A DNA stretch of 64,000 bases from the IMG/VR virus record IMGVR_UViG_3300037423_000584. One strand, 5' to 3'. Position numbers and translations under genes: made by a program. The notes beneath the pieces are model-generated. The model searched no databases and was not told the origin of the DNA. It worked only from the letters and a program-made list of their open reading frames with translations. This document shows positions 10,672-22,237 of the stretch, piece by piece; the stretch's first letter is position 1, and every line of letters begins with the position of its first letter. The stretch comes from a virus.

Positions 10672-10676
10672 TTTAG

Positions 10677-10724
10677 TTATCTCTATTTAGTTGTATTATA
10701 CAATACATAACTAAATGGAGATAA
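10677..10724 (+). promoter_or_regulatory. RBS-sequestering hairpin upstream of HNH endonuclease gene
   Basis: TTATCTC-TATTTAGTT-GTATT pairs with AATAC-AT-AACTAAATG-GAGATAA and buries GGAG (10717-10720). Confidence 0.75.
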
Positions 10725-11988: not shown

Positions 11989-11997
11989 AATTAATAT

Positions 11998-12041
11998 AAA
12001 TCTTCTATATTATATTATACGATAATGTAATTAGGAGATTT
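11998..12041 (+). promoter_or_regulatory. RBS-sequestering hairpin upstream of the second HNH-like gene
   Basis: AAATCTTCTA/TAGGAGATTT outer stem plus TTATATTAT/ATAATGTAA inner stem bury AGGAG. Confidence 0.75.
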
Positions 12042-12042
12042 T

Positions 12043-12708
12043 ATGCCAAAAAAGATAAATGACGATTTGATTAAAAAAATAATAGAATTAATTCCATACA
12101 AAATTTTCGTAGAAATAGAAAAAGAACTTTGTGTATCTGATTCAGTGATATCTAATATTGCCAAAAAGAATAATATTGTTCCACGAAAAAATTATAAAAT
12201 ATCTAAAGATAAAGAAATTTATATTTTAGAAAACGTTAATAAAAAATCAATAACTGAGATCGCTAAGGACATTGGAGTAAGTAAATCTTGTGTAAGAAAT
12301 TTTTTAGTTAGTAAAGTTATAAAAATAGTTCATTCATATAGATGATTCTTCGCACGAATAAAAACATGTTTAAAATCTGCAAAGAATCGGAGTAAAAGCA
12401 AAAATATACCATTTGATTTAGATATAGAATTCCTTTTATCTTTATGGGAAAAACAAAATGGAAAATGTTTCTATTCAGGAATAGATTTAGGAACATATGA
12501 GTATGGAATCAAATATAATAATAAAAGAAACAGAAATTCTTTATCTATAGATAGAATTGATCCATCTAAAGGATATGAAAAAGATAATGTAGTTTTATGT
12601 TCTCTATGGGCCAATACTGCAAAATCTATTTTATCTCCGGAAGATTTTATACAAATGTGTGAAACAGTTGTAGAATATAATAAAACTAAGGTACAAAATG
12701 CCCGATGA
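12043..12708 (+). pseudogene. HTH plus HNH-like endonuclease interrupted by one in-frame TGA (12343-12345)
   Basis: The same frame continues past TGA: FFARIKTCLKSAKNRS...QNGKCFYSG...SLSIDRIDPSKGYEKDNVVLCSLWAN; paralog of 10727-11365. Confidence 0.8.
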
Positions 12709-18196: not shown

Positions 18197-18445
18197 ATGC
18201 TGGATTTATATAAAATCTTCGAAGAAGTTGGATGTAAAATAATATCTACTAATCCAAAACCCAAAACATCTATAGATTTTATATGCAGATGTGGCAAAAA
18301 TGGGAAAATATATTACAAATATAATACAAAAATAATAGAATGTAATACATGCAGAAGCACGAGGGCTAGAAAAAATGATAAATACAATAAAAAGGAATTT
18401 GAACAATGGTTAATTCAACAGAACGTAAAGTTCAGGAAGGAGTAA
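18197..18445 (+). CDS. Small zinc-ribbon protein resembling the N-terminal module of phage homing endonucleases
   Basis: 'GCKIIS...IDFICRCG...ECNTC' repeat-type module; no nuclease domain follows. Confidence 0.5.
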   Translation: MLDLYKIFEEVGCKIISTNPKPKTSIDFICRCGKNGKIYYKYNTKIIECNTCRSTRARKNDKYNKKEFEQWLIQQNVKFRKE

Positions 18446-18497
18446 ACAAGGCAGTGGACAATAATTATATTATTTTCCACTGTCATTAGTTTACTCT
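18439..18497 (+). promoter_or_regulatory. Long hairpin covering the dnaE RBS, GTG start and the 8-nt coding gap
   Basis: GAGTAAAC/GTTTACTC, GGCAGTGGA/TCCACTGTC and AATAAT/ATTATT stems. Confidence 0.75.
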
Positions 18498-20579
18498 GTT
18501 TATAGTCTACTCGATGGTTTTTCAAGTCCTAAGAAGAACGCAGAAAGAGCAAAGAAGCTAGGTATGACCGCTCTTGGTATTTCTGATCACGGAAATATCG
18601 GCGGTCATATTGAACATTGGTCAGAATGTAAGAAAGCAAAGATTAAGCCAATCCTTGGTTGTGAATTATATATTCCATCTCAATGTGCTGCTATTAAAAG
18701 TTCAGACAATCGTCATAATAATCACATGGTTGTTTGGGCGAAGAATAAGCAAGGTTGGTATGATCTAGTTAAACTTGTAAGCAGGACTAATGATCCAGAA
18801 TATTTCTATTATAAACCTCGCATTAGTTTGTTTAATACAGAAATAGAAGGGAAAATGCATGAAGGTTTAGAGTCTTTCTTGACCGGAAACATCATGGGTT
18901 TTTCTGGCCACCAAGGAAGTATTCTTGCAGATAGCCTATTTTGTGATCTTTTTGGTGACAATAAGAAGCGTTCAGAAGATATTAAGAAGGCTTATGGTCA
19001 GTATAAGAATAAGGATATTGAATTCTATAAGCAATTCTTAAAGCCAAACTGGCTAGAATCTACATCAGAATTAGCTTTAAAGCTTCAAAAGATGTTCGGT
19101 AAGGATAACTTCTTCATTGAGCTACAAGATGAATTAAATCCTAATGATAAGCTAGCCCTGTGGATTCATCCTTTGATCGTATCTTGTTTAAGACAGGTTT
19201 CAAAGGCCACTGGTATTCCTGCAATGACCTCATCAGATCCGCATTATGCAAATCCAGAGGATGCGGACGATCAACGTATCATGGTTTCTGTTAATATGAA
19301 AGAAACCGAAGAGAGTATTCAAAGAAAGCTTTCTGACGATCAAGAAAGCGATATCATGGTATTCTTTGGTTCTAATAACTTCTATATTCATAGCTATGAT
19401 GAAATCAAAGATAAGTTTACTCAAGAAGAATTAGAAATGACCAATAAGGTCGCCGCCATGGTTGAGGAATATGATATTAGTGCCAAACCAAGTATTCCTA
19501 AGTTTGATATCCCTAATCTTCCTGATCTTCCATTCCTAAGAAAAATAGAAAACCCTTCTGATAAGTATCTTATGTATCTATGTGTAGAAGGTGCTAAGAA
19601 GTTTGAACCTTGGACAAAGAGTGATAAATATAAGCGTGAAGACTATTGGAATAGACTCAATGAGGAATTTAAGGTCATTATAGAAGCAGGATTGTCTGAT
19701 TATTTCTTGATTGTTTGGGATTTTTGCATGGCTGCTGATAATAGACCAGCAGATCATTCATTCGATTGGCGTAAGAATCTAGAATTAGGCGGTAAAACAG
19801 ATCCAATTCCTCGCGGAGTAGGAAGAGGTTCTGCTGCTGGATGTCTTATTTCTTATCTTGTTTCGATTACAGGAATTGATCCTATTCTTTATAATCTTAT
19901 TTTCTCTCGCTTTTATAACAAGGGTAGAAATACAGCAGATCACATTGAGTTGCCAGATATCGATTCTGACTTTGCAGTAGAAGATAGAGAGTGGATTATT
20001 AAGTATATTGAAAATAAGTATGGTCAAGAAAATGTGGCACAGATTATTACATTCCAAAGAATGCAAGGTCGTGCTGCTATTAAGGATGTTTTTAGAGTAA
20101 AGGGTATTAAGGGCGGTTTTGAACTCTCTAATGAAATATGTAAGTATATTCCAAATGAAGCAGAAGTTGCTGATGAATTACAGGAAATTAGAGATTCTGG
20201 CCATCCTGATTATGGATTGATTAAATATTCTATTGATAATTCTGATGAAATTCAAAAGTTCATTAAGGATGAAAAGATTAAAGGCGTCTTAGATCAAGCA
20301 ATACGATGCGAGGGTGTCAAGAGAGGTCAAGGTCGTCACCCATCTGGAATCATAGTAACACCAAAGCCTGTAAAGGACCATTTTCCAATGGTTTATGATA
20401 CTAGATCAAAGCAAAAAATCATTGGTGTCGATATGAATAATGCCGCCAAGTTGGGTGGAGTAAAAATTGACCTACTAGGCACAGCGATATTAGATAAATT
20501 AAAAATGACACAAGATCTAGTAAATAAGGTAAAGCCTCGACGTAATAGAGTCGATCATTACCAAGAGGAAATAGAATAA
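18454..20579 (+). CDS. dnaE: DNA polymerase III alpha, N-terminal subunit (PHP, palm, thumb); requires skipping 18487-18494
   Basis: GTG-MDNNYIIFHCH joins SVYSLLDG...ISDHG, GCE, SDPHY, GRGSAAG, PDIDSDF, KIDLLG; about 705 aa when joined. Confidence 0.9.
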
Positions 20580-20581
20580 CT

Positions 20582-22237
20582 ATGTATGATACAACAGAAT
20601 CAATAGAAATGCTTCTTAATGAGAAGCATCCAATTAATAGGCTTAAATCAGATACAGAACTTTATAAAGTACCAGAATCTGGAAACTATAACTTTAAAGA
20701 TACACCACTAAACGATCCTAGAGTATGGAGATTGTTCGCTAAAGGGAATACTAGGGGGGTCTTCCAATTAGAAAAACAACTAGGACAAGATTGGTCTAGA
20801 AAGTGTCGTCCAGAAAATATAGAACATCTTGCGGCTCTTGTGTCGATTCTACGTCCAGGTCCATTAGAATCTGGATTCGCTGAGTCTTATTGTAAGAGAA
20901 AGAATGGCCAAGAAGAAATAGTATATCTACATTATTCTCTTGAACCTATTCTTAAAGACACATTCGGTTGTTTAATCTACCAAGAACAAGCAATGCGTAT
21001 TGCTGTTGATATTGCTGGTTTTAACGAAGTACAAGCTGATAACCTAAGAAAAGCAATTGGTAAAAAGAAACCAGAGGAAATGGTTAAAGTCAAGAAGATG
21101 TTTCTTGAAGGTGCCAAGGACAAAAAGCTAGTTAATGAGAAAGAAGCAGAAGAGATCTTCGGTTGGATTGAGAAGTCTGTTAGATATTCGTTTAATAAGT
21201 CTCACGCTGTTTCTTATGCAATGATCGCATATCTTTCAGCTTATCAAAAGACACACTTTCCAACAGAATTCTATTGCTCTTGGCTTACCTATTCTGATTG
21301 GAAGCCTAATCCAAAGGAAGAGATTTACGAATTAGTTCAAAATGCTCGTCTAGATGGTATTAAGGTTAATCCACCAGATATCAGAAGAAAGAATATTGAT
21401 TTCGAAATCATTGGAGAAAAAGAGATAGCTTTCGGTCTGTCTCACATTAGAGGCGTTGGTGCTTCTGCTATTGAGAATATTAGTAATATTAAAAATATAG
21501 ATACATTTGTTGGTTTCCTTAAGTCAGTTAAAAAACTAAAGAGAAATGTTGCTGAAAGCTTAATCAAATCTGGTGCATGTGATTGCTATGGCATGAGTAG
21601 AGCGATGATGCTTCAAAGAATATATGTTATCTTTGGAAGAAATGAGAAAGACACAGAGAATCAAGCACCAGAAGTAAAGTCATTAACACCAAATGAATAT
21701 GAATATGTAATGTCTAAGATTGATAAGCAAACTATTCAAGAATGCTTACAAGGTGTTATTGATAATAAAGTATGTGTTAAAAAACGTATCCCAACTATTG
21801 AATCTAAGATTACTTATATTAATAAGGTTCAAGCTGATACTAATAAGATTAAGTCAATTTGGGAAAAGCTCTACTTAGGTCTTAATTTAACTTGTTCCGC
21901 TGCTGATGACGTAAGTAAGATGGAAAACAATATTACTTCTTGCAGAGATGCTCATAAAAAGAACCATAAAGACAAAGTAACTATGCATGTAGTTATTGAT
22001 GATATTCGTCTTAGAAAGACCTCTGAGAAGGCTAAAAATCCCGGACAAGAATTTGCTTATTTAAATATTAGTGACAATAGTGGTGCTTTGCAAAACGTCG
22101 TATGCTGGCCTGAAACTTGGGACAAGGCTAAAAACGATGGTTTAACACAAGATTGTGTTGTCTGTTTATATGGATATAAAGATTGTTACAATGGTCGTGA
22201 ACAAGTAGTAGCAAGCGATATAGTGGTAATTGGCTAG
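20582..22237 (+). CDS. dnaE: DNA polymerase III alpha, C-terminal subunit (fingers, HhH, OB fold)
   Basis: GVFQLE, LRPGPL, YQEQAM, LRKAIGKK, YSFNKSHAVSY, FGLSHIRGVG, C-terminal OB fold. Confidence 0.93.
   Translation: MYDTTESIEMLLNEKHPINRLKSDTELYKVPESGNYNFKDTPLNDPRVWRLFAKGNTRGVFQLEKQLGQDWSRKCRPENIEHLAALVSILRPGPLESGFAESYCKRKNGQEEIVYLHYSLEPILKDTFGCLIYQEQAMRIAVDIAGFNEVQADNLRKAIGKKKPEEMVKVKKMFLEGAKDKKLVNEKEAEEIFGWIEKSVRYSFNKSHAVSYAMIAYLSAYQKTHFPTEFYCSWLTYSDWKPNPKEEIYELVQNARLDGIKVNPPDIRRKNIDFEIIGEKEIAFGLSHIRGVGASAIENISNIKNIDTFVGFLKSVKKLKRNVAESLIKSGACDCYGMSRAMMLQRIYVIFGRNEKDTENQAPEVKSLTPNEYEYVMSKIDKQTIQECLQGVIDNKVCVKKRIPTIESKITYINKVQADTNKIKSIWEKLYLGLNLTCSAADDVSKMENNITSCRDAHKKNHKDKVTMHVVIDDIRLRKTSEKAKNPGQEFAYLNISDNSGALQNVVCWPETWDKAKNDGLTQDCVVCLYGYKDCYNGREQVVASDIVVIG

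Follow-up and report, generated by a model that had tools for sequence, protein, structure and literature searches.

The dnaE gene of the virus sequence analysed here is broken at the HxH motif of its PHP domain by an 8-nt coding gap that opens with an in-frame TAG, and comparative sequence evidence makes it probable that the gene is read by programmed ribosome bypass, in which peptidyl-tRNA-His would leave a CAU codon and re-pair at UAC. The window (the whole stretch of 64,000 nt that was analysed) is part of a 172.5-kb IMG/VR virus record, the whole of which is referred to as G000, and sequence identical to the window is present in soil and rhizosphere metagenomes. The window dnaE lies within a replication cluster (helicase, primase, exonuclease, dnaE) and is the only replicative polymerase found in G000, with one PHP/dnaE match; no PolA or PolB was found in that record. 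The features of the locus are as follows.

18197..18445, + strand: deleted remnant of an HNH/endonuclease VII-like nuclease gene, with its stop in the hairpin foot
18434..18442, + strand: Shine-Dalgarno-like (SD) AGGAAGGAG for the GTG start, -8.3 kcal/mol against the anti-SD
18439..18497, + strand: long RNA hairpin with its loop at 18466-18468, the GTG start paired with the first His codon
18454..18486, + strand: ORF1, 11 codons from a GTG start, encoding the first PHP strand and two His metal ligands
18484..18486, + strand: proposed take-off codon CAT (His)
18487..18494, + strand: 8-nt coding gap TAGTTTAC, from the in-frame TAG (18487-18489) to the proposed landing triplet TAC (18492-18494)
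18495..20579, + strand: ORF2, the rest of the PHP domain and the palm of DnaE (N-half of a split dnaE), with resume codon TCT
20582..22237, + strand: C-half of dnaE (fingers, HhH, OB) as a separate gene; relatives are split likewise

An earlier note on this DNA had described an 11-codon frame from GTG 18454 running directly into TAG, with the dnaE frame taken up after an 8-nt gap, and all of these coordinates hold: TCT at 18495 is in the frame of the long dnaE ORF, 8 nt past the last His codon. Its statement that this long frame has a stop (TAA) at 18462 and no ATG, GTG or TTG before 18564 is likewise correct. The residues of ORF1 are those that start the closest intact relatives (P0025, P0032 and P0036). 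We take the HxH pair to supply two of the nine DnaE PHP ligands. The PHP site of DnaE has nine conserved ligands for three zinc ions (PMC5636811), and the remaining PHP ligand motifs as well as the catalytic motifs are intact in ORF2. The SD at 18434-18442 is as strong as those of the top 14 of 155 ORF starts (genome median -3.5 kcal/mol), and its distance to the GTG, 11 nt, is long (7-12 nt in the relatives read).

Two ORFs are separated by a non-coding gap whose exact removal restores a conserved protein, as the earlier note had proposed. Removal sets the H-to-D spacing to 6 residues, its value in 91 of 94 intact homologues (7 residues in the other 3), and the gap-removed product scores best against a profile of intact N-termini, with 94.4 bits compared with 89.3-86.3 for the read-through and frameshift products. 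Frame 2 read alone (YYFPL...) was rejected as a candidate; it is without both His residues and reaches 70.7 bits on the same profile. Reading on from the stop, the first triplet with which tRNA-His(GUG) can pair at all three positions is UAC, and the right frame resumes after it; TAC has just one letter in common with CAT. The gap has no room for an A-site stem-loop or mini-SD.

The gap is real, and it is no private mutation. It is bridged with 0 differences and 0 gaps by contigs of three sequencing runs (X1, X5 and X10), so that the 8 nt singled out for confirmation by the earlier note are spanned unchanged, and a contig from run X11 covers the site from 18480 onwards. This check was made on contigs only, X1 and X5 are possibly source samples and all runs possibly belong to one campaign; their agreement excludes an assembly slip and is not evidence of independent biology. 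The identical 8-nt gap is present in L219, at 53% protein identity, and in L432, which belongs to a distant clade.

A protein search recovered about 70 relatives (46-68% identity). Most of them have an intact HxH at their start; in about twenty gene calls the start is unusual, falling at the motif or past it. All 10 readable loci with odd N-termini, collected by protein homology alone (L042, L044-46, L076 and L215-19), have an in-frame TAG gap at the motif, which bears out the comparison of 5' ends proposed in the earlier note. In the nine near loci (all but L076), a further 4-35 bases separate the in-frame TAG from the point where the frame is taken up again. The dnaE of L076 is distant (28% identity); its 44-nt gap includes a strong stem-loop, with GTT to either side, and an endonuclease I-like gene lies upstream. 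With its exact GTT take-off and landing and this upstream gene, L076 is the closest likeness to the gene 60 anatomy. A stem-loop within the gap was seen in both long-gap members, L076:2440-2560 (44 nt) and L216:1480-1560 (38 nt). An odd call does not always mean a gap, as two truncated calls were intact genes miscalled (e.g. P0039, which is L051).

Pattern scans of viral contigs extended this family to at least 68 distinct combinations of take-off codon and gap, of 5-44 nt and in all three frames; this is a lower bound, the scans having needed fixed motifs. Every gap opens with an in-frame stop (TAG in 35, TAA in 24 and TGA in 9 of the 68 variants listed), and the matches listed include no gene whose frame is broken in the absence of an in-frame stop, in scans that demanded a stop-like triplet and so under-sampled stop-free gaps. 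The position of the gap along the motif shifts in whole codons only: it precedes the second His, follows it, or comes one to four codons further on, and ORF1 is 10-16 codons long in relatives. The shortest hops in the set would be those over the 5-nt gaps of L410, L475, L484, L552 and L567, where stop codon and proposed landing triplet share bases (e.g. ACG in TGACG). L243 was left out as not a clear case. A related-loci scan with a single protein returned only distant intact genes, bacterial loci collected through homology showed an uninterrupted motif, a narrow gap pattern had no match in genome contigs, and no cultured phage in INPHARED exceeded about 31% identity. Recurrence in tens of divergent phages argues that the gap is no private mutation; neither this family nor the upstream HNH remnant had been noticed in the earlier note.

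The last triplet of the gap tracks the codon before the stop. The middle base is the same in 59 of the 68 variants listed, against a permutation mean of 28.8 and a maximum of 42 in 20000, a comparison that overstates significance because the variants are related and not phylogenetically independent. Seven amino-acid classes of take-off codon obey this landing rule; among Val, Gly, Thr (2), Cys, Ser and His take-offs there are landing triplets that match exactly or synonymously. After a His take-off the usual landing triplet is N-A-pyrimidine, its first base being unconstrained. In this genome the take-off tRNA could re-pair at the landing triplet if wobble is allowed, and some family members are poorly matched (TGT to AGA in L215; CAC to CTT in L230/L344). 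A control at offset +2 gave 21 of 31 middle-base matches, which the protein motif produces, so that agreement of this kind can have other origins; the matched triplets could also be partly a relic of duplication at insertion. The features that stay constant among the gaps (a stop of any kind, codon phase and a matched triplet) are those that a ribosome would read.

The gapped genes are also set apart by their RNA structure. The window hairpin (18439-18497) extends over the stop and the gap and has a predicted energy of -27.3 kcal/mol (z -8.0, 0 of 200 shuffles as good). A hairpin with z <= -3 immediately precedes the stop in 37/38 gapped genes, compared with 2/171 intact ones, and an SD of -8 or better was found in 32/38 gapped and 28/171 intact dnaE genes. 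The loop centre is 16-25 nt before the stop in nearly all gapped genes. The core helix sets the start codon region against the HxH codons; its four central pairs are present in 74/74 sequences, each in 3-6 pair types, so that the covariation looked for in the earlier note is there. With each gene at its best offset, 8 of 9 pairs were reached by 65/84 gapped and 6/181 intact genes. The earlier claim that the gap forms part of a long hairpin stands for the window; in relatives the pairing across the gap is variable and what is conserved is the core between the start codon and HxH. The hairpin register is frame 0 in 81/84 gapped genes, which is weaker evidence than it first seemed, as intact genes also favour frame 0 (104/181). 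Opposite the first His codon, the window and several near relatives have kept a start codon, whereas the triplet opposite the second His has decayed; this supports GTG 18454 as the real start. ORF1 keeps coding for HxH with synonymous, compensated changes. In a crude co-transcript fold the hairpin gained energy only with the P site at 18492-18498 or later; this late gain fits a ratchet or a late push, as proposed for the exiting gene 60 mRNA, and the hairpin may act as a 'pusher' of this kind. Rfam gave only a sub-threshold miRNA hit to the hairpin.

Upstream of the gap, the nuclease remnant consists of an N-terminal Zn-ribbon part fused to a C-terminal helix, with the HNH core absent. By BLASTP it matches the 267-aa nuclease that precedes the gapped dnaE of L044 in its N-part (E 1e-7) and at its C-end (1e-3), and phmmer gave 2e-8; the L044 protein itself matches phrog_1035 and phrog_559. 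The full-length form of the nuclease precedes gapped dnaE in two distant clades. Neighbours of the phrog_1035 type were found for 5/32 gapped and 3/83 intact genes, and most gapped genes are without an adjacent nuclease. At L051:1861-2475 the same HNH family lies before an intact dnaE without hairpin and without SD; here the gap has possibly been lost, or the nuclease arrived without the cassette.

Gapped alleles are scattered among intact ones, and the nearest relative of most gapped genes is intact. The ten near-clade gapped genes require nine state changes on a tree that does not separate gains from losses, and placing the gapped genes in one clade was rejected (p-AU 2.6e-34, from a quick tree with a weak backbone). 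The cassette probably spread with homing endonucleases, the link to the nuclease being partial. In the MobA pattern the nuclease decays and the bypass stays (bioRxiv 10.1101/2022.08.31.505936; 10.1101/2024.12.09.627546); the window resembles it in having a decayed nuclease and a gap that is kept.

Several observations were made elsewhere in the locus and the record. The dnaE gene is divided into two genes between palm and fingers (window 20579-20582), and intein-like ends were not apparent at this split point; the split is common to relatives, with small unrelated ORFs between the halves in L044, L045, L217 and L218. Long hairpins over the ribosome-binding region of two nuclease-like genes (window 10676-10724 and 11994-12041) contain T(G/A)TATTATAC, a motif that occurs only 4 times in the genome and is, by analogy, a candidate late promoter as for T4 homing endonucleases. 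In a nuclease-like gene, a single in-frame TGA (window 12343-12345) stands between the N-terminal and nuclease halves, with the frame open on both sides. Promoter and terminator scans gave matches at chance level only. There are 7 tRNA genes in G000, none for His, and two tandem tRNA calls of 84 nt at G000:C1 119038-119209 have a TAT anticodon (Ile according to ARAGORN). A crude scan of G000 for a second site with SD, short ORF, hairpin and long open frame found none that was convincing.

The earlier note had read the gap as a bypass with CAU as take-off and UAC as landing, a reading that the comparative tests support and that we would set out as follows. Initiation would occur at GTG 18454, probably aided by the strong SD and also by ribosomes ending the upstream ORF, whose stop sits in the hairpin foot. 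After 11 codons the ribosome would pause, its peptidyl-tRNA-His paired to CAU and its A site occupied by UAG, a slow codon whose place is taken interchangeably by TAG, TAA and TGA among the 68 variants listed. In a fraction of ribosomes the tRNA would release, an 8-nt slide would follow and the tRNA would re-pair at UAC through one U-G wobble and two Watson-Crick pairs; decoding would restart at UCU and yield DnaE with an intact PHP motif. The hairpin would contribute to the signal: by closing again once the ribosome has passed, it may push or ratchet the ribosome forward, and it may hide the start from a trailing ribosome. The gap may in addition shield the allele from re-cutting, as in T4 gene 60. 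The 11-residue nascent chain is too short for a peptide signal of the gene 60 type.

Other ways of making, or not making, this protein were weighed against the same evidence. In another ribosomal route, UAG would be misread by tRNA-Tyr before a hop to UAC, or a -1/+2 frameshift would take place at the stop, leaving 1-3 extra residues after HxH. The Tyr codons TAC or TAT close 8 of 23 His-type gaps among the matches listed, the one-Tyr product scores just 5 bits below the clean hop, and the 7-residue spacing of 3/94 intact homologues shows that a longer form occurs. The remaining His-type landings (AAC, AAT, GAT, GAC, CAT and CAC) share AY with His and are not Tyr codons, however, and for Ser, Thr, Val, Gly and Cys take-offs the matching triplet is a codon of that same amino acid; no suppressor tRNA was found in G000, and the gaps would need shifts of +1, -1 and 0 over up to 38-44 nt, for which no single rule would do. 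Misreading by tRNA-Tyr thus fits TAC here but not the family and is disfavoured, and we regard this group of routes as improbable. Slightly less probable again is removal of the 8 nt from the mRNA by hairpin-guided cleavage and ligation (a micro-intron), to which the strong covarying hairpin next to the gap and the exact restoration of the gene would be suited. Such excision is disfavoured, as it leaves the interchange of stops, the codon phase and the landing rule unexplained; the gap lies on one arm of the stem or outside it, neither a ribozyme core nor a flanking bulge-helix-bulge was found, no Rfam family scored above threshold, and G000 has no RtcB or RNA ligase, a host ligase being possible.

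To much the same small degree we would credit a gene without recoding, in which ORF1 gives a dead-end peptide and DnaE starts from ATG 18564 without its first PHP strand, or in which the gene is decaying and a host polymerase is used. Weak SDs are usual in this genome (median -3.5 kcal/mol), so that initiation at 18564 is possible, and the polymerase active site is within ORF2; but Met 18564 is without an SD and a Met is present there in only 1 of 9 gapped near relatives, so that the switch to a PHP-truncated polymerase suggested in the earlier note is not supported either. Moreover, ORF1 retains HxH through synonymous, compensated changes, the other PHP ligand motifs are intact in ORF2, and the strong SD and the hairpin mark gapped alleles specifically. 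An artefact or private mutation has next to nothing in its favour: the identical holders may all stem from one sampling campaign, but separate assemblies agree, like gaps occur in tens of divergent phages and the same 8-mer is found in two distant genes. Transcriptional slippage was rejected, since the longest homopolymer at the gap is TTT and the gaps range from 5 to 44 nt. Reassignment of TAG was also rejected: TAG ends 13 of 155 long ORFs, there is no suppressor tRNA, and read-through would leave the frame unrestored.

As a proposed bypass, the dnaE gap would work like those of T4 gene 60 and phage Hau3, and it lies outside the gene 60/MobA family. It resembles the gene 60/MobA cases (Manning and Atkins, bioRxiv 10.1101/2022.08.31.505936; Wills et al., bioRxiv 10.1101/2024.12.09.627546) in having a stop directly after take-off, a landing site related to the take-off codon, a stem-loop on the 5' side of take-off, an insertion site at a metal-ligand motif in an essential DNA enzyme, a take-off that may shift by a codon, a patchy distribution and, possibly, an adjoining homing-type nuclease that is often lost or decayed. 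The site is the PHP domain of dnaE, however, and not a topoisomerase (TOPRIM of Topo2L, NTE/CTE tails); the gap is 8 nt (5-44 in the family) compared with 50 in gene 60, and take-off is at codon 11 and not 46, with no signal comparable to the gene 60 nascent peptide (residues 13-29). Short dnaE gaps have no A-site stem-loop or mini-SD, an inner stem-loop being confined to L076 and L216. The 5' hairpin of dnaE is conserved and includes the start codon, whereas the 5' stem-loop of gene 60 homologues is not conserved; and in dnaE the first codon position of the landing triplet often fails to match, whereas in gene 60 homologues the codons remain those of the same tRNA.

For the 10-nt bypass in the terminase of Streptomyces phage Hau3, the junction peptide has been confirmed in E. 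coli (Antonov et al. 2023, PMC10732093). In both systems a short block (7-10 nt) breaks the frame where a conserved protein motif lies and has a slow A-site codon at its 5' end, and a 5' stem-loop and SD are the proposed signals; Hau3 differs in its hungry UUA sense codon, host (Streptomyces) and gene (terminase), compared with a true stop of any type, in dnaE, in many phage clades here. The mitochondrial byps of Magnusiomyces yeasts are many mobile short inserts that are tolerant in take-off and landing pairing. They involve mitochondrial ribosomes, unassigned codons, an in-gap hairpin and many genes, whereas one site in one gene is concerned here. Unprogrammed stop-hopping passes over 9 nt for one amino acid (Wills et al. 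2024, bioRxiv 10.1101/2024.12.09.627546) and has the same anatomy of codon, stop and matched codon, in exact form in L507 and L551; it is a low-level error without signals, in contrast to the conserved hairpin and essential gene of the present case. In the literature searched (most subscription papers being outside its scope) no description of a dnaE bypass was found.

Programmed bypassing is known from very few systems, and the driving force at mRNA exit has been called the main unsolved problem of gene 60 (Wills et al. 2024, bioRxiv 10.1101/2024.12.09.627546). The family comprises at least 68 natural variants of a cassette of less than 70 nt, which evolution has made to differ in the length of the gap, the type of stop, the tRNA at take-off and the match at landing, so that what a hop minimally requires becomes directly testable in a reporter. 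We would give an even chance to a broader proposal, that minimal hop cassettes are widespread and independently evolved in phage replicative polymerases; in these, a hairpin joining start codon and take-off would replace the nascent-peptide and A-site signals, hops of 5-44 nt would be efficient despite landing mismatch, and homing endonucleases would have moved the cassettes as a third way of hiding an insert besides introns and inteins, with polymerase output possibly tied to the host supply of release factor or tRNA-His. On the bypass reading, the annotation of many phage dnaE genes as truncated at the N-terminus would be in error, as would the view that their proofreading domain is dead.
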